From: Burkholderiales bacterium
GTDB lineage: Bacteria > Pseudomonadota > Gammaproteobacteria > Burkholderiales > SG8-41
Length of the DNA: 64,000 bases
Reading direction: 5' to 3'
Assembly: GCA_043743335.1 (NCBI GenBank)
Contig: JAYTWR010000004.1
Span: forward strand, 1,708 to 65,707
In this document: one piece after another, positions 1 through 63,700 of the stretch
Layout of the letters: each line of letters opens with the position of its first letter
How positions within the stretch are numbered: position 1 is the first letter of the stretch
Program-made: the position numbers and the translations under genes
Notes under the pieces: generated by a model
The model's database searches: none
Told to the model about the DNA's origin: nothing
The model's input: only the letters and a program-made list of their open reading frames with translations

Positions 1-166
1 CGCCGCCAGCAAACAGCATCACCCTGGCCTTGGCGTTCGCGGTGGGCAACAGCAGCACCCGTTGGGTGACGCCCGCTCGGGTAGGCACGTCCACCACCCG
101 CAGGGTTTGTGCGCTTACCAGCGAAGGAAATAAAATAAATAATAAAATCAAATAGTTACGCATCAT
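1..166 (-). CDS. secreted protein of unknown function, N-terminal part only (runs off left edge)
   Basis: ATGATG at 166-161 preceded by AAGGAA. It reads MMRNYLILLFILFPSLVSAQ/TLRVVDVP..., a typical signal peptide. It is too short for the ORF track. Codons 3-9 are a copy of the AT-rich motif. Confidence 0.4.
   Translation of the reverse strand, partial: MMRNYLILLFILFPSLVSAQTLRVVDVPTRAGVTQRVLLLPTANAKARVMLFAGG
141..159 (+). repeat. AT-rich IHF-consensus motif copy (AATAAAATCAAATAGTTAC)
   Basis: Exact WATCAANNNNTTR core (AATCAAATAGTTA) after an A-tract. It lies inside the signal-peptide codons of the minus-strand gene at 1-166. Confidence 0.7.
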
Positions 167-3646: not shown

Positions 3647-4648
3647 TTAGTATCCCAGCTTGCGGTCGACGATATTGATGAGTTTTTTGCTGGCGAGAAA
3701 ACGTTCAAAGTTGCTGAACCAGAAGTCGAGCAGGCGCGCCATATAGCGTGGATCATCGCAACTGATGTGCGGCAGCACAAGCACGTTTGGGGTGGTCCAA
3801 AACGGCGAGTCTTGCGGCAGCGGCTCTTGGTCAAATACGTCGAGCACGGCACCCAGCAGATCGCCGCTTTGCAGCCGTTCGCGCAGCGCCGTGTAATCCA
3901 CAATCGGCGAACGCCCAATGTTAATAAAGCCCGCGCCGGGCTTTAATCGGTGAATGCGCTCGCGATGGATGAGGCCGCGAGTCTCTGGCGTAAGCGGCGC
4001 GGTGACAATCACAAAATCGGCTTTGGGCCATACGCTGTCGATACGCGCAGACGTCACCACGCGATCTGCTAGGCGGTGCGCCTTGCCGCTGCGGGTAACG
4101 GCAATCACGTTCATGCCCAGTTTTTTCGCGGCACGCCCTGCCCCTTGTCCCAGATCACCAAAGCCAATAATCACCGCCGTTTTGCCGGTGATGGGCGTCG
4201 TGAAAATGCTGCGCCAGACTTTGGCCGTCTGATTTTGCATCACTTCCGGCATACGCGCTTGCAGCATCAGCAGCGCCATCAGGCAGGATTCTTCAGCCTT
4301 GGGGCCGTGCGCGCCGCGATTATTGGTCAGCGCAATGGCTTTGGGCAGCCACGTTAGCGGCATGAGGAAATCGACGCCAGCGCTGGTGGTTTGTATCCAC
4401 TTGAGATGCGGCGCGCGGGTGCGCAAGTCGTCTCTGGGCGGTGCGGTATTGGTTAACAGAAAGTCGGCGGTTTTCAGCGCTTCGTCAAAAATGGCTTGGT
4501 CTTCGCCGGCCGTGATGCGCAGTTTTTTTGCCAGTGCGCGGTGGCGTAGCGCGGCGGCCTGCCAATCCACCAGCCGCGGCTGAAAAATCAGCGGGCGCTG
4601 CGTGGCGGATTCCAAGTGTAAATGGTAAGTAATTGATTTTATTGACAT
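3647..4648 (-). CDS. D-isomer-specific 2-hydroxyacid dehydrogenase family protein
   Basis: 333-aa ORF. NAD-binding GxGxxG motif (IIGFGDLGQGAGRAAKKLGMNV), then LPHIS.. catalytic His region. It lies 6 nt after the UbiD stop, so it is probably in the same operon. Confidence 0.85.
   Translation of the reverse strand: MSIKSITYHLHLESATQRPLIFQPRLVDWQAAALRHRALAKKLRITAGEDQAIFDEALKTADFLLTNTAPPRDDLRTRAPHLKWIQTTSAGVDFLMPLTWLPKAIALTNNRGAHGPKAEESCLMALLMLQARMPEVMQNQTAKVWRSIFTTPITGKTAVIIGFGDLGQGAGRAAKKLGMNVIAVTRSGKAHRLADRVVTSARIDSVWPKADFVIVTAPLTPETRGLIHRERIHRLKPGAGFINIGRSPIVDYTALRERLQSGDLLGAVLDVFDQEPLPQDSPFWTTPNVLVLPHISCDDPRYMARLLDFWFSNFERFLASKKLINIVDRKLGY
4625..4645 (-). repeat. AT-rich IHF-consensus motif copy (TCAATAAAATCAATTACTTAC on minus strand)
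   Basis: It follows ATG 4648 immediately and encodes residues 2-8 (SIKSITY) of the dehydrogenase. Exact AATCAATTACTTA core. Confidence 0.7.
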
Positions 4649-4654
4649 TTTATT

Positions 4655-6268
4655 TCACCCTCTGACCGGCACTTTTGCTGCGTGGGATGAGCCACGCACG
4701 CACAGCCTGCCGCGCGGGTCTTGCCACAGTTTTTCATCGGTGTGCAGTTTGCCCAGCGCACGCGCCACTGCTTGGAAGGTGTAGTCGGCAAAGCGCTCGG
4801 CGACGGCGGAGTAATACAGCGGCTCTTGCTCGATGACCGCGAGGATGGCATCTGCGAGCACGTTGACGCTGGCGTCAGCCATGTCGTCATTGGCGGGCGC
4901 AGGGTCAGGCTTGCCGTTAGCGTAATCGGCGATTTTCGCGCGGTCGGCATAGGCATAGGCGATGCGCTCGAAGCGCTCGCGCGGGATGCCTTCGCCGATG
5001 GTGGCGTCGATGCCGACCTTTGCACCGGTGGGCACCACGCCGTGCGGCATCACGGCTAGGCTGGGGTCGAGCGGCTTGGCGCGCGCGCCGGGAATGACAA
5101 TCACGTCGCGGTCGCCCTGCACGCGCGTGGCGATGGCCCATTCCACGTCAGTGGCGTTGTGTACGTCGATGTCGTCATCCACCACCACTACGTGTTTGAG
5201 ATCGAGCACCGAGAGCGCCGCCAGCAGCGCATTTTTGCCTTCGCCCGCCTGCTTGTGAATGGAAATGACCGCGTGCCAGAACGCGCAGCCGCCGATGGTG
5301 ACGTTAATGTCTTTGACCTGCACGCCGGCGTTTTTGAGCGCCGCACGTATGGCGGTGTAGCGCGAGGGCGCGGCGAGCCAGGTGTTTTCCCAGGGCATGT
5401 GCAGCGCGTAGTAAATCGGGTCGCGGCGCATGGTCACGGCTTTGATGCGCACCAGTGGATTCCAGTGTAGGCCGCCCATCAGCCGGGTGAATTCACCGAA
5501 GCGGCCTTCGGGGTGGGTCCAGCCGGTCGGCAGGATTTCGCCTTCGAGCACCATTTCAGCGTGCGCGACACAAGGCAGGTCGATGGTTTCGCATTGCGCG
5601 AGTTCAACTGGCGCGCCACGGATGCCGCCGGTGATGCCCATTTCGTCCACGCCGATGGGCGCACGGAAATTCGCGCCCATGATTTCCATGGGATGCGTGC
5701 CGATGGATATTGAAATCGGGCACGTGCGGCCCGCCTCGTACGCGCGCTGCGCATACAAGCGCATATTGTTGGGCGTCACGATGTCGATGCCGGTGAGGTT
5801 TTTTTCTTTCACCATGAAGCGGTAGCAGCCGGAATTCAGCCCGTGCTCCGGGTCGCGCGCCATCACCACGCCGGCGGTGATCATCGGGCCGCCGTCGTAA
5901 ATCGACGACATGGGAATCGGCAATTTGAACAGATCCACGGCGTCGCCCTGCATGATGACTTGCTTGTGTGCGGGGGTTTCGCTGTAACGCGGCGACACCG
6001 GGTGATCGATGCCCTGACGTAGGCGTTGTTCGATCTGGCCGTATTCGGTGCAGCCCATGGCCATGATGGTGCGTTCGCGTGTGCGAATAATGCCCGACAC
6101 CACCGGCATGTCGTAGCCGATGACGTTGTGAAAAAACAGCGCCTTGTCGGATTGATCGACCAGCGTGGCGATGTGGCGGATATCGACCGGCTGCTGCATG
6201 TCGAGCATTTGCCCAGCGCTGCGCAGGCGGTCGAGAAATTCGCGGAAATTTTCGGTGAAAGGCTGCAT
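4655..6268 (-). CDS. UbiD-family (prenylated-FMN dependent) decarboxylase
   Basis: 537-aa ORF with UbiD blocks (DLFKLPIP, DGGPMIT, CYRFMV, EGRFGEFT, VVVVDDDIDVHN..VEWAIATR). It has a ~50-aa C-terminal extension beyond what I recall as the usual end. Confidence 0.85.
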   Translation of the reverse strand: MQPFTENFREFLDRLRSAGQMLDMQQPVDIRHIATLVDQSDKALFFHNVIGYDMPVVSGIIRTRERTIMAMGCTEYGQIEQRLRQGIDHPVSPRYSETPAHKQVIMQGDAVDLFKLPIPMSSIYDGGPMITAGVVMARDPEHGLNSGCYRFMVKEKNLTGIDIVTPNNMRLYAQRAYEAGRTCPISISIGTHPMEIMGANFRAPIGVDEMGITGGIRGAPVELAQCETIDLPCVAHAEMVLEGEILPTGWTHPEGRFGEFTRLMGGLHWNPLVRIKAVTMRRDPIYYALHMPWENTWLAAPSRYTAIRAALKNAGVQVKDINVTIGGCAFWHAVISIHKQAGEGKNALLAALSVLDLKHVVVVDDDIDVHNATDVEWAIATRVQGDRDVIVIPGARAKPLDPSLAVMPHGVVPTGAKVGIDATIGEGIPRERFERIAYAYADRAKIADYANGKPDPAPANDDMADASVNVLADAILAVIEQEPLYYSAVAERFADYTFQAVARALGKLHTDEKLWQDPRGRLCVRGSSHAAKVPVRG

Positions 6269-9359: not shown

Positions 9360-9534
9360 TCTTATAATTGTGGGTTGATTTTAAAGTAACTTGTTGAAAT
9401 AAATCCAGTGAAATCAGATATTTAGCTAAGATTACTCAACTTGTCGTGGAAAAATTGTCAAATCCGGGCGAAAGCGCCCTGCACGGGCGTTACCGGTTTA
9501 CCCGGCACAGGGTGAGTGTGACATTGAATAATAT

Positions 9535-9552
9535 AATAAAAACAATTACTTA
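9535..9552 (+). repeat. AT-rich motif copy, one mismatch (AATAAAAACAATTACTTA)
   Basis: AAACAATTACTTA core, 21 nt upstream of ATG 9574. Confidence 0.5.
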
Positions 9553-9573
9553 TGGTAATACCCGGAGACGGGC

Positions 9574-23146: not shown

Positions 23147-24115
23147 TCAGTAGCCGAAGGTTACTGTGACCGGCAGGTGATCTGAACCGAGATCGGGGCC
23201 GATTTCGCGTTTCACCAGCGGCAGTGACGGATGGGCAAAGCTGTGGTCGATGGCCAGCCCCAGATTGGCGTTGTCGAAGGTCACCGGCCAAGTGTGCGCA
23301 AAGCGGCGCGGCGTGCGGGCATCGCGCAGGCCGCTGTCGGCCACGAATTTGTCGAAATGGGGCGACCATGGCGTCAGGTTAAAGTCACCCACGACGACCG
23401 GTGTTGCCTGCGGTTGCCGAGCCACCCTTTGCGCGATGTAATCCAGTTTGGTGTTGCGATCCCGCGCCATGTTCCCGGAGACCGGCGGCGGCGCGTGCAG
23501 CGCGTAGAGCGCCAGCGGTTCGCTGCGGTTCGGCAGCTTGATGAGCGCTTCAATGTGTGGATACAGCCGTAGCGGTTTGAACGACGCTTCTCCGCCCGCC
23601 AGCGGAAACCGGCTGGCCAGCGCTATGCCGAACGGGGAATCTTCTAAGTATTTGATTTGATGGGGAAAAATATCTTTTATCTCGTCGAGTATGGGGTCGA
23701 ATTGCGTCGAGGCTTCGAGTAGCACCACCACGTCGATGAGCTTGGCGCGGCGGCGTAAATACGAACTGACGCGGCCCGGCTGTTCGTGGTGCAAGCCCAC
23801 GTTAAAATGAAACACCGTGATGGGGTGTGACACGGCAGCGGCGGGTGGCTGTTCCTGCAGCCACATCTGCGCGACGGGATACCCGTTCCATAACGCCAGC
23901 GCACTGGCCAACGCGGCCCAGCGCCATACGCGCAACGCCGCCAAGCCCAACACACACAGCAGCGCGAAGACGGTGTAATGCGGCCTGAAGTGGCTGAACA
24001 GTTCAGCGAACCAATGCAGCGAAGCCAGCGCCGCGCAGCCGGTGACGAGCGCCACCAGCAGGGTCAACGCGATGAAGCGCTTGGCGATACGTTGTTTGTA
24101 TTCTCTTGGGGCCAC
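23147..24115 (-). CDS. membrane-anchored endonuclease/exonuclease/phosphatase (EEP) family protein
   Basis: The C-terminal 320 aa of the 567-aa track ORF carry TM helices plus EEP motifs (GDFNLTPWSP, GSDHLPV). I propose the GTG start at 24115. The upstream 245 'residues' overlap pcp antisense and do not look coding. Confidence 0.7.
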   Translation of the reverse strand: MAPREYKQRIAKRFIALTLLVALVTGCAALASLHWFAELFSHFRPHYTVFALLCVLGLAALRVWRWAALASALALWNGYPVAQMWLQEQPPAAAVSHPITVFHFNVGLHHEQPGRVSSYLRRRAKLIDVVVLLEASTQFDPILDEIKDIFPHQIKYLEDSPFGIALASRFPLAGGEASFKPLRLYPHIEALIKLPNRSEPLALYALHAPPPVSGNMARDRNTKLDYIAQRVARQPQATPVVVGDFNLTPWSPHFDKFVADSGLRDARTPRRFAHTWPVTFDNANLGLAIDHSFAHPSLPLVKREIGPDLGSDHLPVTVTFGY

Positions 24116-31303: not shown

Positions 31304-31471
31304 ATCGGCTGCTGACGCTGGATGCGAGCCGGTATGCGACAGATTTTCCAAAGCTGACGTTGTTACCGGCGTCACAGCGTTTTGCGTTCTGTGCGAATCA
31401 CCTGTCCAGAAATCACGCGAGATCGCGTGGGCGTGCTGTGTGATAAGCAGGCGGTGACTTTTCATAACCAT

Positions 31472-32446
31472 ATGATTTTAAACAGTTATTTGTTAATCCT
31501 CAGCATGGGCTTTGGCTTTGGATTTAGTATTGCCGTCAGCCACGCCCAAAGCTATCCCACCAAACCCATCCGCTTCGTCTCGCCGTACCCGCCCGGCGGC
31601 TCTAACGATGTGGTGGCGCGCATGATTGCAGCGCGCATGTCGCCGGTGTTCGGGCAGCAATGGATCGTCGAAAATCGTTCGGGGCGCGGCGGCAATATTG
31701 GCGTTGAGCTGGTGGCGAAGTCGCCGGCGGACGGCTATACGGTGGTGCATGGCGGCATGGGCAGCCTGACGCTGGCACCGTTTTTGTCGAAGCTGCCCTA
31801 TGACGCGCTGCGCGATTTTGCGCCCGTTACGTTGACGGCGCGTGCGCCGAATGTGATTGCGGTGCATCCCACGCTGCCGGTGAAATCGGCGGCTGACCTG
31901 ATTGCGCTGGCGCGGGCGCGGCCCGGGCAATTGGATTATGGCAGCAGCGGGGTGGGCAGCACGCCGCATTTGACGGCGGCGCTGTTGGCATCGCTGGCGG
32001 GCATCAAGATGATGCACGTGCCGTATAAAGGCAGCACGCCAGCAACCATCGATTTGGTGGCGGGGCAGATTCCGCTGTTGTTCGCGCCGATATCTGCGCT
32101 GCTGCCGCAGATTGAATCGGGCAAGGTGCGCGCGATTGGTGTCAGCAGTTTGCAGCGCTCGCGTTTGTTGCCGGGCGTGGCGACGATAGCCGAATCGGGC
32201 ATCGCGGGTTTTGAGATGAACCCGTGGTTTGCGATGTTGGCACCGGCGGGCACGCCGCGTGACGTGGTGACGCGCTTGAATGCAGAAGTCACGCGCTACC
32301 TGCGCACGCCCGAAGCCGCCAAACTGTTCGCGGCGCAAGGGGCCGATGTGGCGTTCAGCACGGCGGACGAACTGACGGCATTGATGAAGGCTGATCTGGC
32401 ACAGTGGGGCAAGGTGATACGCGATAACCAGATTCAGGGCGAATGA
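31472..32446 (+). CDS. Bug/TctC-family tripartite tricarboxylate transporter substrate-binding protein
   Basis: MILNSYLLILSMGFGF..AQSYPTKPIRFVSPYPPGGSNDVVAR... is the canonical Bug architecture. I prefer the start at 31472 over the track's 31382. Confidence 0.9.
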   Translation: MILNSYLLILSMGFGFGFSIAVSHAQSYPTKPIRFVSPYPPGGSNDVVARMIAARMSPVFGQQWIVENRSGRGGNIGVELVAKSPADGYTVVHGGMGSLTLAPFLSKLPYDALRDFAPVTLTARAPNVIAVHPTLPVKSAADLIALARARPGQLDYGSSGVGSTPHLTAALLASLAGIKMMHVPYKGSTPATIDLVAGQIPLLFAPISALLPQIESGKVRAIGVSSLQRSRLLPGVATIAESGIAGFEMNPWFAMLAPAGTPRDVVTRLNAEVTRYLRTPEAAKLFAAQGADVAFSTADELTALMKADLAQWGKVIRDNQIQGE

Positions 32447-37260: not shown

Positions 37261-38313
37261 ATGAGGTTACTAGTGGAAAAGCCGGTACACATGGATAGCG
37301 CACTACAGACGGCCCGATGGATTCCCGCGTGGCCCGCAACCGCGGCAATCGTCAGTGCTGTCCTCCTGACAGGCATGCCGCCTGCACCGCACGCGTATGC
37401 CGCTGACGCCTACCCGGTGAAAACCATACGCATCGTCATCGGCTTTACCGCCGGTGGCAACAGCGATGCCATGGCGCGGCCGATGGCGCGGCGGTTGTCT
37501 GAGGCCACCGGCCAGCAGGTCATTATCGACAATCGGCCCGGTGCATCTGGCAATATCGGTATGGAGCTGGTGGCGCGCGCTGCGCCCGACGGCTACACCA
37601 TTTTTAGCGGCCCGGCGTCGAGTTTGACAGTCAATCCGCACATCGCAGAGCGCATGCCGATAGACACACTGCGCGATCTCGCGCCGGTGGTGTCGCTGGG
37701 GCAGTTTACTTCGGTGCTGGTTTCGCACCCGTCGTTACCGGCAAAAACCGTGGCCGAGTTAATTGCGCTGGCCAAGCAGCGACCGGGGCAGATCACGTTT
37801 AGTTCACCGGGCAACGGCACCGGCTTTCATCTCGCTGGCGAACTCTTCAAGCTGCATGCTGGCATCAAGGCGCTGCACGTGCCCTATGCGCAAATCAGCC
37901 CCATGCTGGCCGATTTGATGGGCGGGCGTGTGGACATGATGTTTTTCTCTGTGGCGGTGGTTGCGCCGCACGTGAAATCCGGCAAGCTGCGCGCGATTGC
38001 AACCACCGGCAGAGAGCGCTCGCCAGCGATGCCTGAGGCGCCGACGTTTCGTGAGTTGGGATTACCGAGCTATGAATACAGCGCCTGGCACGGCATCTTC
38101 GCGCCGGCAGCCATGCCCAAAGACCTCGTGGAGCGCTTGAACGAGCTCATTACCAAGGTGCTGGCGCTGCCGGACGTGCGCGACTTTTACATTGCGCAAA
38201 ACGTCTACCCGATGCCCCTCACCCCCGCAGCCCTTGCCGAGCGCGTGCGCACTGAGCACGATAAATGGCGCAAGGTGATTCGCGATGCCGGGATCAAGCC
38301 GGGGTTGGGTTAA
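37261..38313 (+). CDS. Bug/TctC-family substrate-binding protein
   Basis: ..YPVKTIRIVIGFTAGGNSDAMARPMARRL.. and a Bug-type C-terminus. An alternative start is ATG 37291. Confidence 0.9.
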   Translation: MRLLVEKPVHMDSALQTARWIPAWPATAAIVSAVLLTGMPPAPHAYAADAYPVKTIRIVIGFTAGGNSDAMARPMARRLSEATGQQVIIDNRPGASGNIGMELVARAAPDGYTIFSGPASSLTVNPHIAERMPIDTLRDLAPVVSLGQFTSVLVSHPSLPAKTVAELIALAKQRPGQITFSSPGNGTGFHLAGELFKLHAGIKALHVPYAQISPMLADLMGGRVDMMFFSVAVVAPHVKSGKLRAIATTGRERSPAMPEAPTFRELGLPSYEYSAWHGIFAPAAMPKDLVERLNELITKVLALPDVRDFYIAQNVYPMPLTPAALAERVRTEHDKWRKVIRDAGIKPGLG

Positions 38314-38333: not shown

Positions 38334-39515
38334 CTACGCGGGGCGGATATTCAGTAGATGCCGCGCTGCATCTATCGTTTCACTCGCCGTCAGCCCCACA
38401 GGCCCCAAGCCATCGGCGACGCACTGATTCGCCGCCGCACCATGCAGCCCTACGGCAGCGTCCAACGCGTGCGGCGCCTCGACACCTTGCGCCAATAACG
38501 CAGCGATGATGCCCGTCAGCACATCTCCCATGCCTGCACTGGCCATGCCCGGATTGCCGGACGTGTTGATGCGCCACGGTTGGCCGGGCGACGCGCATAC
38601 GCTGCCTGCGCCTTTGAGCACGACGTGTGCGTTGAATTGATGCGCCAATTTTTCGGTGGCGGCGATGCGGTTGGCCTGCACTTCGCCCGTGGTGCAGCCG
38701 AGCAGGCGTGCCGCTTCGGCAGGATGGGGCGTCAGCAGTTTTTCTGTAACTATTTGATTTAATAGGGTTTTTAGTTTTTCGGACACGGCGATAAGATTTA
38801 AGGCATCCGCATCGATCACTAAAGGCCGCGTGGACGCAAGCGCCGCTTCAAGGCAAGCCATAGCTTCCGGCGATTGGCCTAGGCCGGGACCGATGGCGAG
38901 GCAACTGAGGTGATCCAGCATCAATACGTCGCCGGCCGTGCGCAGCATTAATTCGGGTTGCGCAACATCCAGCAGCGGCGCATCGCGTGCCAGCAAGCCC
39001 ACGTAAACACGGCCTGCCCCCAGTTTTAACGCTGCGCGTCCCGCAAGCAAAGCGGCACCCACCATGCCGTCGGCACCGCCAATGATGCCGACACTGCCGT
39101 GACTGCCTTTGTGTGAGTTGCGCGGGCGCTGCGCGAGGGGTTGTGTGGCACCGAGCACGCGGCCCGGTGCGGCCTCGTTGCCGCTATTAAGCGCGAGATC
39201 CGCCACAACGATCTCGCCGCAGCAATCCGGCCCGTCCAGCGTCAACAGGCCCGGTTTCGCGGCGATGAAAGTGATGGTGTGTGTGGCGCGTACGCAGCAG
39301 CCGTGACCTTGGCCGGTGTCGGCGTTGAGGCCGCTGGGGATGTCGATGGCGAGCACGGGCGTGCGGCCGGTGCTTCGGTTATTGATAGCGGCGATCCATT
39401 CCGCGTAGCGACCCGTAATGTCGCGGGTGAGGCCGATACCGAAGAGTCCGTCGATGATCAGACACCCATCATTTTTGTCCGGCACGGTAGCGATAGTGGT
39501 GCCGCCGATGTCCAA
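38334..39515 (-). CDS. nnr: NAD(P)H-hydrate repair enzyme Nnr: intact ADP-dependent dehydratase domain, truncated epimerase domain
   Basis: The C-terminal domain has HKGSHGSVGIIGG..., LTPHPAEAARLLG, KGAGS and GMASAGMGDVLTG. Only the last ~70 aa of the YjeF_N epimerase domain (IIDGLFGIGL..AIDIPSGL) are present. The TTG start at 39515 is doubtful. Confidence 0.75.
   Translation of the reverse strand: MDIGGTTIATVPDKNDGCLIIDGLFGIGLTRDITGRYAEWIAAINNRSTGRTPVLAIDIPSGLNADTGQGHGCCVRATHTITFIAAKPGLLTLDGPDCCGEIVVADLALNSGNEAAPGRVLGATQPLAQRPRNSHKGSHGSVGIIGGADGMVGAALLAGRAALKLGAGRVYVGLLARDAPLLDVAQPELMLRTAGDVLMLDHLSCLAIGPGLGQSPEAMACLEAALASTRPLVIDADALNLIAVSEKLKTLLNQIVTEKLLTPHPAEAARLLGCTTGEVQANRIAATEKLAHQFNAHVVLKGAGSVCASPGQPWRINTSGNPGMASAGMGDVLTGIIAALLAQGVEAPHALDAAVGLHGAAANQCVADGLGPVGLTASETIDAARHLLNIRPA
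38746..38765 (-). repeat. AT-rich IHF-consensus motif copy inside nnr coding sequence
   Basis: The minus strand reads CTATTAAATCAAATAGTTAC and is translated LLNQIVT. Exact AATCAAATAGTTA core. Confidence 0.65.
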
Positions 39516-39638
39516 CCATTTTGCGTATGCCAGCAGTCAAATACAGCGGCGTGCCATGCGTCATTTTGGCGAGCATCATGCGTATTAGTTTAGCGGAAAA
39601 GCGGTGGTACAATATGGCTTTACAGAGTCTGAAAACCG

Positions 39639-42600
39639 ATGATTCTGCGTCTCCGGGGGCGGCGAGCCCTCTCTGATTTTCGCCTTGCCAAACTTTCCCA
39701 GTCGCTACCGGCGTCGTTTGCTGGGCTGACATTGCATGCTGAGTTTTGGCATTTTGTTGAACTCACGAGTGCCGTGTCTGCCCTGTCCGCCGCCGAGCTT
39801 GAGCGGCTCGAACGCATTCTGACCTATGGTCCGGTTGGCCCGGTCGGCGCTGTGGATACCGCGCAAGGCGAAGTGCTGCTGGTGACACCGCGGCCCGGTA
39901 CGATTTCACCGTGGTCTTCCAAGGCAACCGACATCGCGCGGCATTGCGGGCTGGAAGCCGTGCGCCGCATTGAGCGCGGCACGGTGTTCCGGGTGAGCGG
40001 CGTTGATTTCGGTGAAGCACGCCCGGCATTGTTGCCGCTGATACACGACCGCATGACCGAGGTGGTGTTCGCGTCGCTGGAAGATGCCGACAAGCTGTTT
40101 CAACGCTTCGAACCCAAGCCGCTGGCGACCGTGGATATTCTCGGCGGCGGTGTGCAAGCCTTGGCGCGAGCGAATCGTGACATGGGCCTAGCGTTGTCGG
40201 AAGACGAAATCAGCTATCTCGTTGAGCACTTCACGCGCATGGCGCGCAATCCCACCGACGTTGAGCTGATGATGTTCGCACAGGCCAATTCGGAACATTG
40301 CCGCCACAAGATTTTCAACGCCGATTGGGTGATCGACGGGCAGATCAAAGACATTTCCTTGTTCGGCATGATACGCACTACGCACGCCAAGCATCCGCAA
40401 GGCACGGTGGTGGCGTATTCGGACAATTCGTCGATTATCGAGGGCGCGCGTGTCGCGCGGTTTTATCCCGGCACGGATGGCGCGTATCGATTCGTTGAGG
40501 ACGACACACACATTTTGATGAAGGTGGAAACCCACAATCACCCGACGGCGATTGCGCCCTATCCGGGCGCGGCCACCGGCTCCGGCGGTGAAATTCGTGA
40601 CGAAGGTGCGACCGGGCGCGGCTCCAAACCCAAGGCCGGGCTGACAGGGTTTAGTGTGTCGAATCTGCGCATCCCCGGCGCGCTGCAACCGTGGGAGCGC
40701 GCATCCGAGTCATACGGCAAGCCCGGACGCATCGCGTCGGCCTTGCAAATCATGCTCGACGGACCCATCGGCGGCGCGGCGTTTAACAACGAATTCGGGC
40801 GTCCCAATCTCACCGGTTACTTTCGCACGTATGAGCAGTCGGTGGCCGGCGAAATGCGTGGCTATCACAAGCCGATCATGATGGCGGGCGGCGTTGGCAA
40901 CATCGCCGCACGCCATGCCTTCAAAGCCGAGCCGCAGGCGGGCGCGTTGCTGATTCAGTTGGGCGGGCCGGGCATGTTGATTGGCCTGGGCGGCGGTGCT
41001 GCGTCGAGCATGGATACCGGTGCGAATCAAGAAGATTTAGATTTTGATTCCGTGCAGCGCGGCAATGCGGAAATTCAGCGTCGCGCGCAGGAAGTGATCG
41101 ATCGGTGCTGCGCGCTGGCCGACGCCAATCCGATTTTGTCGATACACGATGTCGGCGCAGGCGGTATTTCAAATGCGTTGCCGGAAATGGTGCATCAGGC
41201 CGGACGTGGCGGACGGTTTAATTTGCGTAAAGTGCCCAGTGAAGAGCCGGGTATGTCGCCGTTGCAAATCTGGTGCAACGAGTCGCAGGAGCGCTACGTG
41301 ATGGCGATAGCGCCGGATTCGCTGGCGGCCTTTGATGCGATTTGCGCGCGTGAACGTTGCCCGTACGCGGTGGTGGGCGAGGCGACGGACGACGGGCGCT
41401 TGACCGTGCACGATTCCGTGTTCAACAACAACGCGGTGGACATGGATTTGTCGGTGCTGCTTGGCAAGCCGCCGAAAATGACGCGGCGCGTGGCGCGTAT
41501 CGCAAGTGTTATTCAAGTATTTGATTTTAAAGGAATAAATTTACGCGAAGCCGCATACCGCGTGTTGCGCATACCGTCGGTGGCGGACAAAACCTTTTTG
41601 ATCAGCATCGGGGACCGCAGCGTCGGCGGCATGACGGCGCGTGACCAGATGGTTGGTCCGTGGCAGGTGCCGGTGGCGGATGTGGCGGTGACGCTGATGG
41701 GTTTTAACACCGTGCGCGGCGAAGCCTTTGCAATGGGCGAGCGCACGCCGCTGGCGGTGATTAACGCGGTAGCGTCGGGCCGCATGGCGGTGGGCGAGGC
41801 GATTACCAATATCGCTGCGGCACCGATTGCGAAAATCGGCGACATCAAACTCTCGGCCAACTGGATGGCGGCAGCGGGCCACGGCGGTGAAGATGCGGCC
41901 TTGTTCGACACCGTGCACGCGGTGGCGATGGCATTGTGCCCGCAGTTGGGCATTAGCATCCCGGTGGGCAAAGATTCGTTGTCCATGAAAACCGCGTGGT
42001 CGGATGGCGGGCAGAAAAAAGAAGTGATCGCGCCGCTGTCGCTGATTGTGTCGGCGTTTGCCCCGGTGTTAGACGCTCGTAACACCCTGACGCCACAACT
42101 GCGCACCGATTGCGGCGAAACGGTGTTGCTGTTAATCGACTTGGCCGTCGGCAAACAGCGTTTGGGTGGTTCGGCCTTGGCGCAGGCTTTTAGCGCGACG
42201 GGCGCGGTGACGCCCGATGTGGAGTCGCCTGCAGCCATAGTTGAATTTATTCAACAAAAACAATTGGTTACAGATGCCGGCCAAATTTTGGCTTACCACG
42301 ACCGCTCAGATGGCGGCTTGTTTGCCACTGCGTGTGAAATGATGTTCGCGGGGCGTACCGGCGTGACTTTACAGTTGCCCGCAGGCGCAGCGCTAATCGA
42401 GACTTTGTTTAACGAAGAGTTGGGCGTGGTGCTGCAAGTGCGCGCAGGCGACGAGGCGGCGGTGTGTGGCGCGTTCGGCATGGCTTGCCGTCGCATCGGC
42501 GTGTTGAATGCCGATGCAATGTTGCGCATTGAAGCAGGCGGCCACGAAGTATTTTGTGAATCGCGTGTCGAGCTGCACCGCGCTTGGTCCGACACCACTT

Positions 42601-43514
42601 GGCGCATGCAGACGCTGCGCGACAACCCGCAATGTGCGCAGGAAGAATTTGATCGCATTCTCGATGTTGCCGATCCGGGTATGACGCCGGTGCTGACGTT
42701 TGACCCCGTGCAAAATGTTGCCACGCCGTTCATCAATAAGGGCGCGCGGCCGCGCATGGCCATCCTGCGCGAGCAAGGCGTCAACGGGCAAATCGAAATG
42801 GCCGCAGCGTTTGATCGCGCAGGTTTTGCGGCGGTGGACGTGCACATGAGCGACATTATCGTGGGGCGTGTGAGTCTGGCTGACTTCAAAGGCTTTGCGG
42901 CGTGCGGCGGATTTTCCTATGGCGACGTGCTGGGGGCGGGCGAGGGCTGGGCTAAATCAATTCTGTTCAACGCACGCGCGCGCGACGAATTCGAGGCGTT
43001 TTTCAAACGCGACGGTGCCTTCGCGCTGGGTGTGTGCAACGGTTGTCAGATGATGAGCAACTTGCGCACGCTGATTCCCGGTGCCGGCATCTGGCCGCAT
43101 TTTGTGAAGAACAAATCCGAGCAGTTCGAAGCGCGTGTGGCGATGCTGGAAATTCAGTCTTCGCCTTCGCTGTTTTTTGACGGCATGGCCGGTAGTCGTT
43201 TGCCGGTGGCGGTGGCGCATGGCGAGGGCTATGCGGAATTCACCGACGCAGCCGCACTGACGCAGGCGCAGCCGCTGGTTGCGCTGCGCTTTGTGGATAA
43301 CGCAGGGCAGGTGACAGAGCGCTACCCGCTCAATCCCAATGGCTCAACGCAAGGTATCACCGGACTCACCACGGCCGATGGTCGTTTCACCATTTTGATG
43401 CCGCACCCGGAACGCGTGTTCAGAACGGTGCAGCATTCGTGGCACCCCGATGGCTGGGGCGAGAACGGGCCGTGGCTACGCATGTTCGGCAATGCGCGCA
43501 AGTGGCTGGGTTGA
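39639..43514 (+). CDS. purL: phosphoribosylformylglycinamide synthase (single-chain, large PurL)
   Basis: 1291-aa ORF starting [19 protein letters not shown]. Contains [17 protein letters not shown], and a C-terminal glutaminase domain with GVCNGCQMM. Confidence 0.97.
41514..41533 (-). repeat. AT-rich IHF-consensus motif copy inside purL (reverse orientation)
   Basis: Plus strand CAAGTATTTGATTTTAAAGG is translated QVFDFKG. Minus-strand core AATCAAATACTTG. Confidence 0.6.
42251..42271 (+). repeat. AT-rich motif copy inside purL, one mismatch (TCAACAAAAACAATTGGTTAC)
   Basis: Translated QQKQLVT. It differs from the consensus at the positions that would create TAA. Confidence 0.6.
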
Positions 43515-43577
43515 TCGTGAGCGGGCCGGGTATCGATCCCGCATGGCGCAATTAAGTTAAAAACGACGCTTGCCACA

Positions 43578-43610
43578 GAGGACACCGAGGACACCGAGGA
43601 CACCGAGGAC
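43578..43610. repeat. 9-bp tandem repeat GAGGACACC x3.7 enclosed by inverted GCCACAG/CTGTGGC
   Basis: Read directly, 64 nt downstream of the purL stop. Confidence 0.85.
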
Positions 43611-43633
43611 TGTGGCTAACGGCTTTTTCCAAT

Positions 43634-43664
43634 AAAAAACGGCGGAACAAATACGCCGTTTTTA
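43634..43664. terminator. bidirectional rho-independent terminator (purL / ppiC convergent)
   Basis: AAAAACGGCG-GAACAAATA-CGCCGTTTTT. Confidence 0.75.
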
Positions 43665-43667
43665 TTG

Positions 43668-43686
43668 TTAAAAATCAATGACTTAC
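43668..43686 (+). repeat. AT-rich IHF-consensus motif copy (TTAAAAATCAATGACTTAC)
   Basis: Exact core AATCAATGACTTA. It overlaps the stop codon (43683-43685) of the minus-strand PPIase gene. Confidence 0.6.
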
Positions 43687-44489
43687 TCTATTTTTGCCTT
43701 AGCCCGCATATCCGCCAGCATTTTCTGGATTTGCTGGCCTTGCAGCATTTGCTGAATCTGCGGCTTGGCTTCTTCCAGCGTCGGCACTTTGGTCGCGCGC
43801 TCGTCGTCCAGCCGTATCACGTGAAAGCCGAACTCGGATTGCACCGGGGTATCGGTCAGTTGGCCTTTTTTGAGTTTGCCTAAGGCCTCGCTGAAGGGCT
43901 TGACGTAGCGGCCCGCGGGAGCCCAATCGAGATCGCCGCCGCGTGTTTTGGAGCCGGTGTCTTTGGATTTATCCGCCGCCAGCTTGTCGAAGCTGCCCCC
44001 CTTTTTGAGTTGCGCAATGATGTCTTTGGCTTCGTCTTCTTTTTCTACCAAGATGTGCCGTGCCTTGTATTCCTTGGCGGGAATGGTGGGCTTGACGCGT
44101 TCGTATTCCTTTTTGACGGCGTCATCGTTCACCGGGTTGGCCTTCATGTAGTCCTGAACAAAGGCGTTGACCAGGGTTTCCTGACGTTGCAAGTCGAGCT
44201 GCGCAGCGACTTCCGGGGTTTTTTGCATGCCTTTTTTCACCGCTTCCTGCGCGACCACTTCCTGATTGATCAGGGTCTCACGCAGTTGATTGCGCACTTC
44301 GGGCGTATCCGGCTGTTTGCTGGCGGCGCGCATTTTGAGAATGGTGTCGAGCCGCGCCTGCGGGATTTCCACGCCGTTGACCTTGGCGACTTGGGCGTGG
44401 GCCGGAGCGGCCAGCAAGCCGGCAGTCGTCAAAACCACTGCGGCCACCGAAGCGGCGATGTTGTTGGGTGAAAAACGGGGGGCGTGCAT
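43683..44489 (-). CDS. periplasmic parvulin-type peptidyl-prolyl cis-trans isomerase (PpiC/SurA-like)
   Basis: ATG 44489 after AAGGAA. Signal peptide ..LLAAPAHAQ. Rotamase block YKARHILV...GGDLDW....F...A......G.....PV.SEFGFHVIRL. Confidence 0.85.
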   Translation of the reverse strand: MHAPRFSPNNIAASVAAVVLTTAGLLAAPAHAQVAKVNGVEIPQARLDTILKMRAASKQPDTPEVRNQLRETLINQEVVAQEAVKKGMQKTPEVAAQLDLQRQETLVNAFVQDYMKANPVNDDAVKKEYERVKPTIPAKEYKARHILVEKEDEAKDIIAQLKKGGSFDKLAADKSKDTGSKTRGGDLDWAPAGRYVKPFSEALGKLKKGQLTDTPVQSEFGFHVIRLDDERATKVPTLEEAKPQIQQMLQGQQIQKMLADMRAKAKIE

Positions 44490-44517
44490 AAATGAATTCC
44501 TTGGTGGTTGTGTGTCT

Positions 44518-44781
44518 TCAGATTTCTTCGGGTGCAAATGCTTTTATGGACAAGGCATGAATAGCGGTTTGCATCATTGGGCCGAGCGCATCGTAAACCA
44601 AGCGATGTCGCGCAGGCAACGTCAAACCGTGAAATTGTGCCGAAACCAGCAACAATTGGTAGTGCCCGCCGCCAGCTTTGGCGCCTTCGTGCCCGACGTG
44701 GCGACCGGAATCATCGAGGATCTCGATGGATTCAGGCGTTAGCGCAGCGAGGCGTTGCTGCATGTGTTCAATAGTATTCAA
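44518..44781 (-). CDS. BolA-family protein
   Basis: 87-aa ORF. ..DDSGRHVGHEG...GGHYQLLLVSAQFHGLTLPARHRLVYDAL....IHALSIKAF is the BolA fold signature. Confidence 0.85.
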   Translation of the reverse strand: MNTIEHMQQRLAALTPESIEILDDSGRHVGHEGAKAGGGHYQLLLVSAQFHGLTLPARHRLVYDALGPMMQTAIHALSIKAFAPEEI

Positions 44782-44844
44782 TGCGTCGCGCTTTTTTAAA
44801 TGACTGCTGTCAGAGACCCGCCGACCGGGAAAGGGTTCCCGTAG

Positions 44845-45411
44845 TCAGTCGGACTTGACCGGCGGCTGCGCTTGATCGGGCTGATCCGGTAACAGGTGTT
44901 TGCTGATCAACAAAGCCTGACCGATCATGAACACCAGCATCAGGCCCATGCCGCCAAACATCTTGAAATTCACCCAAGTATCGGTTGAATAGTTGAAGGC
45001 GACATACAGGTTCAACACGCCCATCAAAATGAAAAACACGATCCAGCTCACCAGCAGTTTGCCCCAAATGGCGTCAGGTAACGCCACGGATTTTTCCATC
45101 ATGGCGCGGATGAGATTTTTCTTGAACAACAAGGCTGCGCCCCCCAGTGCAGCGGAAAACAGCCAGTACAGCACCGTGGGCTTCCACTTGATGAAGGTTT
45201 CATTTTGCAATATTAGTGTCGCGCCGCCGAACACCGTGATTACGCCCAAGCTCACCCACAGCATGGGTTCAATCTTGCGATGCCTGAACCATACCCAGCC
45301 GATTTGTGCGAACGAGGCCGCGATGGCCACCGCCGTGGCCGTATAAATGCCGTAAAACTTAAACGCCGCGAAGAACAGAATCACGGGGAACATGTCGAAC
45401 AAAAACTTCAT
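44845..45411 (-). CDS. yciB: intracellular septation protein A (YciB/IspZ)
   Basis: [30 protein letters not shown].., five TM segments and about 188 aa. Confidence 0.9.
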
Positions 45412-45441
45412 GGCGTCAAACCTTTGTGGTCTTAACTAGTC

Positions 45442-45837
45442 TTAAGTTTTTTCAAACTTCAGCGAAGCGGAATTGATGCAATAACGCAGCCCGGTGGGCT
45501 TGGGGCCGTCTTCAAACACATGGCCCAAGTGCGCATCGCAGCGGCTGCACAGCGCCTCAGTGCGGCGCATGAAAAAGCTGTTGTCTGATTCCGACGCCAC
45601 ATTTTCCGCAACGGCAGGTTGCCAAAAGCTGGGCCAGCCGGTACCGGATTCAAATTTGTGCTCGGACTTGAATAATTCTGTGTCGCAGCAGATGCAGCGA
45701 TATACGCCGTGTTCATGGTTATCCCAATACGCGCCGGTGAATGCGCGCTCGGTGCCTTTTTTGCGCGCGACATCGAATTGCTCGTTGTTGAGCATTTGTT
45801 TCCATTCGGCGTCGGTTTTTTTCACTTTGTCAGTCAT
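45442..45837 (-). CDS. msrB: peptide-methionine (R)-S-oxide reductase
   Basis: 131-aa ORF with two CxxC pairs ([21 protein letters not shown]) and RYCINS. Confidence 0.95.
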
Positions 45838-45888
45838 GGCGTCTCGTAAAAATGTGGTGCTGATTCAGTCGCGTTCAAGACGCGCAAC

Positions 45889-47313
45889 TTACAGCACTTT
45901 GCCCGGATTCATGATGCCCTGCGGATCGAGCGCGCGCTTTACGGTGCGCATGAGATCGATTTCCACCGGGTCTTTGTAGCGCACCAGTTCTTCGACCTTG
46001 GCGATGCCGATGCCGTGTTCAGCGCTGAAGCTGCCTTTGTATTGCTTGACGATATCGTAAATCACCGTGGTGACATCGTTGGCCGCGCGCGCGGCGGCAT
46101 CCGTGCGCAGTCGGCCTTCGACGTAAGCGTTGTAGTGCAGATTGCCGTCACCCAAATGACCGAAGCAAATAATTTTGCTGTCCTTGAAACGTTTTTCCAG
46201 CGCGGCCTGGCCATCGCGAATAAAGGCGGGAATCTCCCCGACGGCCACTGCGATATCGTGCCGATAGAGCATGCCGCTTTCGTTGCGCGCGGCTTCGGGT
46301 ATGGATTCACGGATGCGCCACAGCGCCTGTGATTGGGCGTGGCTTTCCGCCAACGTTGCATCGATAACTAATTGATTATCAATGGCTTTTTCTAGGACGC
46401 CTTCGAGTGTGTCGCGCAGGGTGGTGCCGGGCGACGAATCACCCAACTCGGTCAGCACGTACCATTCGTAAGGCTTGTCCAGCGGATCGCGCGTGCCGGG
46501 GATGTGCTTCATCACCAGCTCAAGGCAAGCGCGCGAGATTAACTCAAACGCGCTGATGCGATCACCGAAATGCTGACGCAACAGCGAAAACAAACTTAGC
46601 GCGGCGTCAGGGGAGGGCACGGCCAGCCAAGTGGTCGCCGTGGCGCTCGGCTTGGGAAACAGCTTCAATACCGCGCCAGTGATAATGCCGAGCGTGCCCT
46701 CGGCACCGATGAACAAATGCTTCAGGTCGTAGCCGGTGTTGTCTTTGCGCAGCGCACGCAGGCCGTTCCAAATGCGGCCATCCGGCAGCACGGCTTCGAT
46801 GCCGAGCACCAGATCGCGCGTGTTGCCGTAACGCAGCACATTCACGCCGCCGGCGTTGGTCGATAAATTGCCGCCGATCTGGCAACTGCCTTCAGCGCCC
46901 AGCGACAGCGGAAACAGTCGATCGGCTGCCGCCGCCGCTTGTTGAATATTTGCCAGCACGCAGCCGGCCTCCACCGTCATGGTGTTATTGAGCGCATCGA
47001 CATGGCGAATGCGGTTCATGCGCCCCAACGCGATCACCACGGGATTCAGTTTCGGGTCGGGCACGGACGCGCCACACATGCCGGTGTTGCCGCCTTGCGG
47101 CACCAGCGGCGTTTGGGTTTCAGCGCAGATTTTGACAATGGCCGCAACTTGCTCGACGTTGGCCGGTCGCACCACCGCAGCGGCGGCACCCGCATAAATG
47201 CCGCGCCAGTCGTTGACGTAGGGCTCAAGTTCCGCAGGCTCCGTAAAAATACCTTGCGGGCCGACGGCTGCGCCGAGGCGACTGATAGTGGCGGTGCGGG
47301 AGACGGGAGGCAT
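45889..47313 (-). CDS. FAD-linked oxidase (GlcD / D-2-hydroxyacid dehydrogenase-like)
   Basis: 474-aa ORF. FAD_binding_4 (PQGGNTGMCGASVP) plus a C-terminal FAD-oxidase_C (SAEHGIG..K). Confidence 0.85.
   Translation of the reverse strand: MPPVSRTATISRLGAAVGPQGIFTEPAELEPYVNDWRGIYAGAAAAVVRPANVEQVAAIVKICAETQTPLVPQGGNTGMCGASVPDPKLNPVVIALGRMNRIRHVDALNNTMTVEAGCVLANIQQAAAAADRLFPLSLGAEGSCQIGGNLSTNAGGVNVLRYGNTRDLVLGIEAVLPDGRIWNGLRALRKDNTGYDLKHLFIGAEGTLGIITGAVLKLFPKPSATATTWLAVPSPDAALSLFSLLRQHFGDRISAFELISRACLELVMKHIPGTRDPLDKPYEWYVLTELGDSSPGTTLRDTLEGVLEKAIDNQLVIDATLAESHAQSQALWRIRESIPEAARNESGMLYRHDIAVAVGEIPAFIRDGQAALEKRFKDSKIICFGHLGDGNLHYNAYVEGRLRTDAAARAANDVTTVIYDIVKQYKGSFSAEHGIGIAKVEELVRYKDPVEIDLMRTVKRALDPQGIMNPGKVL
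46364..46385 (-). repeat. AT-rich IHF-consensus motif copy inside the GlcD-like gene
   Basis: The minus strand reads CCATTGATAATCAATTAGTTAT and is translated AIDNQLVI. Exact AATCAATTAGTTA core. Confidence 0.65.
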
Positions 47314-47485: not shown

Positions 47486-48535
47486 ATGAAGTGTACGATG
47501 CGCTTGAGCGTTTTGATGCTCATGCTGTTGTTGCCCGCGACCACCGTTGCGCTGGAATATCCCGCGCGCGTGGTAACGCTGGTGGTGCCCTATCCGTTGA
47601 GCGGCCCGACCGACATTCGCGGCGCGTCACGCATGACCAAAACCTACTAGCTGATGGCGGCGAATGCGCCGCCGGCGATCTCCGACACGCTGGGACGCAT
47701 TGTGCAGCAGGCAATCCGCTACGAATCCAAACACCCGGTGCTGCTGGAGCGTCAACCCGGCGGCGCGACCACACGTGGCGCGCAGCATGTGGCGCGCGCG
47801 GCGGCGGACGGGCATACCTTGTTGCTGGCGAGCAACGAAACCATGGTGCTGACGCCGCATTACGCCGCCGAAGTGGGCTACGACCCGACGCGCAATTTTG
47901 AACTCGTCGCACCGCTGGTCAACATGCCGTTCGTGTTGATGACCAGTACCGGCTTGCCGTTCAAGACGCTGGATCGGCTGATCGGGTACATCAAGGTGCG
48001 TCCCGGCGATATCAATTACGGCTCGTCGGGTGACGGCAGCACGGGCCATCTGGCGGGGGAGTTGATGCGCCGCGCATTGGGGCTGGACATGGTGCATGTG
48101 TCGTACAACGGTGGCTTGTCGGCCTTGAATGGCCTCGCCACCGGGCAAACGTCGCTGATGTTTGCGGCCCTGCCGCTGGCGTTACCGTATCTGAACAACG
48201 AAAACCTGCGCGCGCTGGCCATCGCCAGCCAGCAGCGCACGGAATTGCTGCCGCATCTGCCTACCTTGAATGAAGCCGGTATTGCGGGTGCGGATGTCTC
48301 TGCTTGGTTCGGCGTATTCGCACCGAATGGCGTGTCGCCGAGTGCGATTCGTTGGCTGAACGAGCGTATTTCAGAAGCGGTGAATGATCCTGCTACACGT
48401 AACGTCTTGGTGCTGCAAGGTTTGGAACCGATTCGCGGATCACTGTCGGCGTTCGCCTCGCGCATCTATGCTGAAGGCGAGCGCTGGGGGCCGGTGCTGA
48501 AAGCGGCGCGTATTCCGCTGCGAAACGCTTCTTGA
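47486..48535 (+). pseudogene. Bug/TctC-family gene interrupted by an in-frame TAG (47648-47650)
   Basis: Signal peptide plus VVPYPLSGPTD, then about 22 extra codons (IRGASRMTKTY*LMAANAPPAIS), then DTLGRIVQQ..., continuing in the same frame to a normal Bug C-terminus. Confidence 0.7.
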
Positions 48536-61468: not shown

Positions 61469-61479
61469 CTAAATAATTG

Positions 61480-61498
61480 TTTAAAATCAATTAGTTAT
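61480..61498 (+). repeat. AT-rich IHF-consensus motif copy (TTTAAAATCAATTAGTTAT) within a larger imperfect palindrome
   Basis: TAACTAAATAATTG-TTTAAAAT-CAATTAGTTA spans 61466-61497 between convergent stop codons. Confidence 0.7.
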
Positions 61499-61510
61499 GT
61501 AATTATCTGA

Positions 61511-62473: not shown

Positions 62474-62595
62474 GATGAGCTGGAAGTGTCGGGGCGTGGG
62501 GTGCAGCGTGGGGTGCAGCGTATGGTAGTCTAAATGTGACGCAGCCCACATCAAACCGGCTGCCGGGCATCGATCACAACAAGGGTAAAAACGGC

Positions 62596-63576: not shown

Positions 63577-63657
63577 TGTGGCGGTAGATTCGACCGCCAC
63601 CCATCGCATTTTCCGCGCGTCGCCCAAGGCCGAGAATTTCACTATAAGAGAAATCCA

Positions 63658-63676
63658 TTTAAAATCAATTAGTTAT
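63658..63676 (+). repeat. AT-rich IHF-consensus motif copy (TTTAAAATCAATTAGTTAT)
   Basis: Exact core, between convergent Bug and cytochrome c gene ends. Confidence 0.7.
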
Positions 63677-63700
63677 GGAATTTATTCCCCGACCGACGCG

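Follow-up and report, generated by a model that had tools for sequence, protein, structure and literature searches.

Why should enzyme genes of a GC-rich bacterium carry, within their reading frames, copies of an AT-rich word that otherwise fills the gaps between genes? The question is raised by a 64 kb stretch of an uncultured betaproteobacterium (contig JAYTWR010000004.1; the whole stretch is hereafter called the window), which has a GC content of 60% and about 0.70 G+C at the third codon positions of its genes (GC3). The commonest intergenic repeat of this bacterium, with many copies in tiny gene spacers, is an asymmetric, AT-rich word whose core AATCAATTAGTTA agrees with the consensus WATCAANNNNTTR of binding sites for integration host factor (IHF), and further copies lie inside nnr, purL (twice), a GlcD-like gene and a YafD-like gene. 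We consider it very likely that these in-gene copies are genuine, that substitution produced them and that they are maintained as DNA. As to what they are, the word is probably a putative binding site for an IHF-type nucleoid protein that has been overwritten on coding sequence and is kept as DNA.

Alignment of the copies gave a consensus of ~30–39 nt, aTAAAAAnnTCAATAAA-A(T/A)CAA-(T/A)TA(G/C)-TTA-C. A 39-nt weight matrix was trained on 15 intergenic or gene-junction copies, with no in-gene patch used, and at a threshold of at least 22 bits it found 21 sites in the window, against a maximum score of 12 bits in 50 shuffles of the same DNA. The IHF consensus core itself had 17 exact matches where 0.9 was expected. 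A repeat search returned the word as the largest repeat family of the window, with units of 37–41 nt, and found no longer repeat or conserved flanks around it there; the word contains neither a hairpin nor terminal inverted repeats, and its minimum free energy of about 0 kcal/mol is that of an unstructured single strand. The 21 copies showed no strand bias (13 plus, 8 minus) and a density of about 0.33 per kb, and five of them (24%) lie in open reading frames (ORFs). With 0.086 copies per kb of coding sequence and 2.86 per kb of non-coding sequence, the word is depleted 33-fold from coding sequence (P=1.6e-13), as expected for a DNA site closed by stops in five of its six frames. Gene starts were taken from a simple GC3-based choice of ORFs, refined in places by Pfam and homologs. 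The five in-ORF copies and the genes that carry them are as follows.

38743..38781, minus strand: nnr copy, sense, 40.4 bits; core AATCAAATAGTTA at 38747-38759; encodes EKLKTLLNQIVTE
41510..41548, minus strand: purL reverse copy, antisense, 29.9 bits; core AATCAAATACTTG at 41514-41526
42236..42274, plus strand: purL forward copy, sense, 32.1 bits; core AAACAATTGGTTA at 42258-42270
46361..46399, minus strand: GlcD-like copy, sense, 27.2 bits; core AATCAATTAGTTA at 46365-46377; encodes LEKAIDNQLVID
23641..23679, minus strand: fifth in-ORF copy, in a YafD-like endonuclease/exonuclease/phosphatase gene, 22.1 bits
38334..39515, minus strand: nnr (NAD(P)HX repair) ORF, 393 aa; Pfam Carb_kinase, with YjeF_N profile positions 99-169 only
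39639..43514, plus strand: purL, large single-chain FGAM (formylglycinamidine ribonucleotide) synthetase, 1291 aa; homologs at 72-85% identity with purL Pfam domains, and Salmonella PurL structures at E=2e-137
45889..47313, minus strand: GlcD-like FAD-linked oxidase gene, 474 aa; Pfam FAD_binding_4 and FAD-oxidase_C
23147-24115, minus strand: YafD-like gene, true extent, with the fifth copy

The GlcD-like protein is 100% identical to a protein (P0121) encoded on a 76,923-bp NCBI contig. Four of these patches had been pointed out in the initial annotation, and their codons and translations were found as given there: CTA TTA AAT CAA ATA GTT ACA (LLNQIVT) in nnr, CAA GTA TTT GAT TTT AAA GGA (QVFDFKG) for the purL reverse copy, CAA CAA AAA CAA TTG GTT ACA (QQKQLVT) for the purL forward copy and ATT GAT AAT CAA TTA GTT ATC (IDNQLVI) in the GlcD-like gene, the nnr patch lying one base off at 38745-38765. 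Their proposed membership of the intergenic family also held, as they scored 27–40 bits on the matrix built from intergenic copies, compared with at most 12 bits in the shuffles.

To see how far the peptides themselves could dictate such AT-rich runs, each peptide was recoded at random with synonymous codons drawn according to codon usage in the window. Under this recoding null, P was <5e-5 for nnr, the purL reverse copy and the GlcD-like copy, 3e-4 for the purL forward copy and 1e-4 for the YafD-like copy; since no value exceeds 3e-4, the peptides alone cannot explain the patches. Among 13-codon segments, none in the respective gene has a lower GC content than the patch, and in purL the two patches take the lowest two places. 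Patch GC3 is 0.07–0.29 (0.14 in nnr and 0.07 in the purL reverse copy), and the codons used are rare within their synonymous families (TTA 4%, CTA 4%, GGA 5%, GTA 8%, GTT 9%, ACA 9% and ATA 10%). The description of AT-rich codons set in genes that otherwise end almost always in G or C was thus correct for the patches and overstated for the genes, whose GC3 is 0.69–0.71. Of the AT-rich stretches of the window (GC≤0.30 over 39 nt), eight fall entirely within ORFs; five are the word, two are weakly word-like and one is unrelated. The two weak patches, at 10753-10791 (15.6 bits) in a PlsB-like acyltransferase gene and at 62888-62926 (17.9 bits) in a TctC gene, may be nascent or decaying copies.

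The in-ORF copies are edited at the very positions where stops close the consensus, as had been proposed. The three forward copies (nnr, GlcD-like and purL forward) are read in one frame, giving K/N-Q-I/L-V, with TAA changed to TTA, GAT or CAA. In the purL reverse copy TAA has become CAA, which makes TTA the still-permitted TTG. The in-ORF copies retain CAA and TTR, the latter as TTG in one copy. The shared frame reported for the forward copies holds for those three, but the YafD-like copy is read in a different frame (HQIKYLE), in which the word's TAG is read as TAC, so the shared frame is not a rule.

Ortholog alignments bear on whether the word was inserted into these genes or written over codons that were already there. 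The nnr site showed no indel against 19 orthologs, the word lying between the conserved DADALN and TPHPAEA blocks; both purL sites aligned without a gap to 31 close relatives, 10 distant beta- and gammaproteobacterial orthologs and Salmonella PurL structures; and the GlcD-like site showed no indel against eight orthologs. With zero length change at all four sites, the view of the initial annotation that the word replaced codons stands. The alignments show directly that the in-gene copies were made by base substitutions only, existing codons being replaced with no change of length. The further suggestion that the word occupies variable loops is only partly upheld. In nnr, its ATA (Ile) takes the place of an arginine found without exception in the 18 betaproteobacterial orthologs that lack the word; in the Thermotoga TM0922 and Bacillus YxkO structures, too, the aligned residue is arginine. 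The purL forward patch overlies a moderately conserved segment (..LKAFFAAIQxLN..), in which the conserved F, Q and L, judged by the 10 distant orthologs, are retained. The GlcD-like patch corresponds to a helix end plus the following turn in an AlphaFold2 model (local predicted local distance difference test >90, whole-model mean 62).

Synonymous positions give a view of the pressure on the DNA itself. Among six word-bearing purL lineages, whose synonymous sites are nearly saturated, third-position identity is 0.53 gene-wide and about 50% of shared residues have identical codons; in the forward patch these values are 0.80, in the top 0.2% of 11-codon windows, and 85–100%. The GlcD-like patch has a third-position identity of 0.76 compared with 0.53, placing it in the top 5.6% of windows. 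In one relative (L082) the purL peptide differs (NIQLNQELR) and the DNA still forms a core without mismatch, AATCAAGAACTTA, in which TTA stands in place of TAA. Precursors of the copies are visible as well. At the purL reverse site, relatives with the peptide FDT score about −20 bits, scores for those with FDF (TTT GAT TTT, which is AAAATCAAA read as its reverse complement) run from 0 to −9 bits and the window scores 29.9 bits; this series shows the copy to have grown from a conserved FDF codon triplet. In the YafD-like family the peptide PHQIK(H/Y)LED is conserved, and relative L109 encodes an identical 20-residue peptide with GC-ending codons, scoring 2.2 bits where the window scores 22.1 bits. 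The two differ at five positions, all synonymous and all changed toward the word, showing the fifth copy to be nascent and to have arisen from five synonymous changes alone. The copies sit where codons already matched the word in part: Q (CAA) and L in PurL, FDF (the reverse complement of AAAATCAAA), and QIKHL in the YafD-like protein.

Relatives were obtained without codon-usage bias, by a degenerate peptide scan (L081 and L082) and from contigs with GlcD or YafD homologs (L098-L104 and L106-L109); they are metagenome-assembled contigs, and the trees are neighbour-joining trees of single genes. The word family occurs in all of the retrieved relatives but L106, its intergenic copies scoring 38–51 bits and mostly having the form AAACAAATACTTA, and the nnr, GlcD-like and purL forward copies recur at the same positions in relatives of 77–85% PurL identity. 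No word was found in 80 purL loci of other proteobacteria, all of ≤72% PurL identity. The distribution over the four sites is as follows.

nnr site: present in the window, L082, L101, L102 and L103; decayed in L099 and L100; absent from L104, which keeps the ancestral Arg
purL forward site: present in the window, L081, L082, L099, L100, L101 and L104; decayed in none; absent from L102 and L103, which have an ancestral-type peptide
GlcD-like site: present in the window, L098, L100 and L103; decayed in none; absent from L099, L101, L102, L104 and L083
purL reverse site: present in the window only; decayed in none; absent from all relatives

The pattern can be fitted to the gene trees only with several gains and/or losses, scattered over the tree. 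Of the four sites, three are not recent but of long standing, since relatives have them too, and the purL reverse copy alone is lineage-specific. A single recent spread is rejected, since copies are common to orthologous positions of relatives. The intergenic copies are patchy, and two occur at orthologous places, the window copy at 37224 with L082 and that at 43651 with L102. Taken together, the comparisons show copies that persist or are formed anew over long periods, at the level of the DNA, and that decay when the pressure lapses.

What could exert such a pressure? The word has the layout A-tract-N9-(A/T)A(T/A)CAA-N4-TTR, with an information peak at AAAAAA ending 9 nt before ATCAA. In the same register, the P' arm of lambda attP reads AAAAAA-GCATTGCTT-ATCAA-TTTG-TTG, a sequence verified at 100% identity in lambdoid phages. 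This arm holds the H' IHF site, as is well established, and the layout of the word is that of a high-affinity site of this type. On the evidence of its letters, the word is IHF-like in consensus and layout, and more stereotyped than known IHF sites. Sigma-70 promoter-like, sigma-54 promoter and terminator-like sites and Rfam families were also sought in the window; none coincides with an in-ORF copy, and their numbers do not exceed chance. We infer that selection would act to preserve binding by a nucleoid protein that is sequence-specific and bends DNA, for which IHF or a close analogue is, on balance, the favoured candidate. The word would serve as the binding site for that protein throughout the chromosome, placed mostly in tiny intergenic spacers and occasionally over coding sequence where the protein product tolerates it; in the copies seen there, the stops of the word have been swapped for sense codons and rare AT-ending codons recruited.

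Several observations count against this proposal. The relatives mostly have AAACAA instead of ATCAA, and conservation in the family, unlike in known IHF sites, extends to the 9-nt spacer TCAATAAA and to the N4 (WTAS). The family matrix gives lambda H', placed in register, a score of 10 bits, a value short of significance, and H2 one of 23.8 bits; in a lambda-like attP (L105), the H2 region at 348-386 (TATCAATATATTA) is the top match in 895 bp. The low score of H' is due to the conservation of the spacer and N4 in the family, which IHF does not require; the case for IHF is accordingly one of consensus and layout and not of matrix similarity. No IHF or HU gene (ihfA, ihfB) is present in the window. 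Synonymous conservation in the nnr patch is 0.60 and not significant, though this patch scores 27–40 bits in five lineages. Many copies adjoin start codons that lack a Shine–Dalgarno sequence. Finally, copy spacing is uneven, with six copies within 37-47 kb and two in purL 726 bp apart, and this clustering around purL means that a simple need for one site every few kb fails to explain the two purL copies. Regular spacing as the cause of the in-ORF copies was rejected, as six copies are clustered within 10 kb around purL.

Other accounts of the word fare as follows. That it is the site of some other DNA-binding protein, an H-NS-like nucleation site or a clade regulator (e.g. of TctC/Bug genes) in which the IHF-like core is incidental, is unlikely: it would accommodate the conservation beyond the needs of IHF (spacer TCAATAAA and N4) and the many copies directly 5' of TctC genes in the window and two relatives (L107 and L108), but copies also lie after, between and inside unrelated genes in both orientations, and the A-tract-N9-ATCAA-N4-TTR layout is a specific IHF match. 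The resemblance of TCAATAAAAT, at 8/10 positions, to the E. coli H-NS high-affinity motif (tCGATAAATT) is taken as a lead only. Distinctly unlikely is an uptake-signal-like sequence, in which a bias of uptake or recombination spreads better matches, also within genes, without benefit to the cell. In ORFs the word does behave like the uptake signal sequences and DNA uptake sequences (USS/DUS), being lineage-specific, changed by substitution only, set at tolerant residues and orthologous positions and found in both orientations (PMC2817400). Its gains and losses are scattered over the gene trees, the copy at 43651, shared with L102 against the tree, fits frequent recombination among clade members, and a sharply bendable site could plausibly aid DNA uptake. 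On the other side, the word has a density of about 0.33 per kb, compared with about 0.8–0.9 per kb for USS/DUS when their genome sizes are set at about 1.8 and 2.2 Mb. The USS/DUS counts behind that density, and a share in ORFs of 34.5–65% against 24% (33-fold depletion) for the word, are from PMC2817400. The word also uses rare instead of preferred codons, its match to the IHF layout would be a coincidence under an uptake reading, and no competence genes were seen in the window. Very unlikely, too, is a self-propagating word of an uncultured Burkholderiales clade, spread by uptake, recombination or gene conversion on a bendable IHF-like site, with a drive so strong that it overwrites conserved residues of housekeeping enzymes and is recreated repeatedly at the same codons in separate lineages. 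We know of no uptake sequence outside the Pasteurellaceae and Neisseriaceae, and such a word, if true, would be the first uptake-sequence-like system there.

The starts without a Shine–Dalgarno sequence hint at some role of the adjacent copies in RNA or translation. An account of the whole family in these terms, with the word as an AU-rich unstructured leader or standby site in spacers and as ribosome-slowing rare codons in genes, is nevertheless highly improbable. The word takes the place of the Shine–Dalgarno region at several starts, it is unstructured, the in-ORF copies are rare-codon runs and four of the five are in sense orientation; yet between co-directional genes sense and antisense copies number 5 and 4, one purL copy is antisense, neither lack of structure nor slow codons would need a specific 30-nt sequence, and Rfam gave no match. 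The last two possibilities have next to no probability. In-frame insertion of a small mobile element (a Rickettsia palindromic element or a MITE, a miniature transposable element with inverted repeats) would account for a dispersed repeat and for nothing beyond that, and is refuted by the ortholog alignments, with zero length difference at all sites, no inverted repeats, hairpin or longer flanks, and graded precursors and synonymous build-up instead. Chance resemblance, or AT-rich codon runs dictated by the peptides, finds some support in the YafD-like peptide, of which QIKHL itself favours part of the core; it is refuted by the shuffles (27–40 bits compared with ≤12), the recoding nulls (P≤3e-4) and the orthologous copies, the word being found at orthologous sites despite a different peptide (L082 purL). 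Binding sites for an IHF-type nucleoid protein thus remain our preferred reading of the word.

Outside the genes, the copies in the window are as follows.

124..162, plus strand: intergenic copy, 50.0 bits
1785..1823, plus strand: intergenic copy, 52.0 bits
4622..4660, minus strand: gene-junction copy, 48.8 bits, which may hold the start of a 2-hydroxyacid dehydrogenase gene
9518..9556, plus strand: intergenic copy in a divergent spacer, 44.0 bits
11886..11924, plus strand: intergenic copy, 48.9 bits
17938..17976, minus strand: intergenic copy, 41.6 bits
21742..21780, plus strand: intergenic copy, 55.0 bits, top score of the window
31461..31499, minus strand: copy at the 5' end of a TctC gene, 36.8 bits
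37224..37262, plus strand: intergenic copy filling a 14-nt spacer 3' of a CMD-family gene, 44.6 bits
43651..43689, plus strand: intergenic copy in the purL-ppiC spacer, directly after the purL terminator hairpin, 24.9 bits
50797..50835, plus strand: intergenic copy, 39.5 bits
53364..53402, plus strand: intergenic copy, 51.2 bits
54519..54557, minus strand: copy abutting the ATG of a TctC gene, 51.3 bits
58278..58316, plus strand: intergenic copy 4 nt upstream of the ATG of a TctC gene, 54.8 bits
61463..61504, both strands: head-to-head double copy, 51.6 bits (plus) and 26.4 bits (minus)
63641..63679, plus strand: intergenic copy, 41.0 bits

The copies at 37224, 54519, 58278, 31461, 4622 and 43651 fill whole spacers and overlap or abut start or stop codons, often those of TctC/Bug genes. 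The copy at 4622..4660 may encode MSIKSITY, the first residues of the 2-hydroxyacid dehydrogenase, in the sole open frame of the word, and the reverse complement of the copy at 31461..31499 likely contains the TctC gene start MILNSYLLI. The orthologous copy of 37224 in L082 lies 3' of the same CMD-family gene and scores 50.8 bits. In the copy at 43651..43689, TTA is the ppiC stop codon on the opposite strand, and the orthologous copy is in L102. Both this word copy and a remodelled 3' end of ppiC are common to the window and L102 (13691-13729), and L103, the gene-tree sister of L102, is without both; this sharing against the gene tree suggests recombination among clade members or ancestral polymorphism. 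In the double copy at 61463-61504 the cores are 2 nt apart, making a near-palindrome.

The surroundings of the copies showed further features. At 39400-39600 the nnr gene is without about 85 codons of the YjeF_N epimerase domain when compared with the 495-residue Nnr of L082, and its dehydratase domain is intact; the ~20 codons at its 5' end stand in another frame than the 393-residue ORF, relatives having 495–521 residues. Possible explanations of the shortened nnr are a pseudogene, a gene for the dehydratase only and an assembly error. The purL-ppiC spacer (43515-43682 in the window; also L081-L104) is hypervariable, at 53–168 nt, with lineage-specific short tandem or inverted repeats, such as GAGGACACC ×3.5 within CCACAG...CTGTGG in the window and GTGAAGG-type arms in L099; a bidirectional terminator hairpin stands beside these repeats in the window, L102 and L103 only. 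At least six TctC/Bug periplasmic binding-protein paralogs are encoded in the 64 kb (31382-32446, 37261-38313, 47654-48535, 53558-54523, 58317-59315 and 62536-63576), and, compared with the gene order of the relatives, the paralog at 37261-38313 is an insertion that separates the CMD gene from nnr. The two long ORFs at 13118-16519 (minus strand) and 32752-35100 (plus strand) have extreme AT skews (−0.55 and +0.31) and internal low-complexity repeats; these repeats are GC-rich and look like Ala/Glu-rich coding sequence.

The locus offers a clean natural case of dual coding in bacteria, in which a 30-nt DNA signal lies over enzyme-coding sequence and the cost can be measured in rare codons, altered residues and the replacement of an invariant arginine. 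The stages are visible across relatives, from seed codons through a synonymous-only nascent copy and a mature conserved copy to decayed copies. If the binding protein is IHF, nucleoid-protein sites in this clade would be under selection strong enough to shape protein sequences, and most of the AT-rich islands in this genome of 60% GC would be due to them; should a drive be the cause instead, uptake-sequence biology would extend to a new group. In either case the word is a caution for analyses of codon usage and of the ratio of non-synonymous to synonymous substitution (dN/dS) in these genomes, and a handle for experiments.

How does the word compare with known systems? Rickettsia palindromic elements, Correia elements (which carry an IHF site) and MITEs are likewise dispersed short repeats and can lie in frame in conserved genes; those elements, however, insert, lengthen the protein and have inverted-repeat ends, whereas the word brings no length change and has no inverted repeats. 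RIB and RIP are reportedly IHF sites within the REP/BIME repeats of E. coli and resemble the word as repeated, mostly extragenic IHF-type sites at gene junctions; unlike them, the word has no flanking REP palindromes and no hairpin, and some of its copies lie in ORFs. HIP1 (GCGATCGC) of cyanobacteria is a hyper-abundant word under selection within coding sequence, of unknown function (PMC5861425), and to that extent a parallel as a short word maintained by selection in genes; but it is an 8-bp GC-rich palindrome abundant in genes, and our word, at 30 nt, is asymmetric, AT-rich and found mainly between genes. With USS/DUS, which favour preferred codons, the word shares over-representation, restriction to a lineage, both orientations, stop-avoiding substitution without indels, tolerant residues and orthologous sharing (PMC2817400), so that the likeness drawn in the initial annotation, and its contrast with Rickettsia palindromic elements, hold. 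It departs from USS/DUS in being longer and AT-rich, in its IHF-type layout, in being about 3-fold less dense and 33-fold depleted from ORFs, in its rare codons and in overriding an invariant arginine. IHF sites within genes are not new as such, since IHF binding regions inside E. coli genes have been reported by chromatin immunoprecipitation sequencing (PMC3333857); what our literature search did not return is any report of a stereotyped IHF-like word written into ORFs, or any occurrence of the word itself. With canonical IHF sites such as lambda attP H' the word has in common the WATCAANNNNTTR core and the A-tract spacing A6-N9-ATCAA-N4-TTR. It differs from them, as known here from sequence, in being a hundreds-fold enriched, near-identical 30-mer with a conserved spacer and N4, and in the preference of the relatives for AAACAA.

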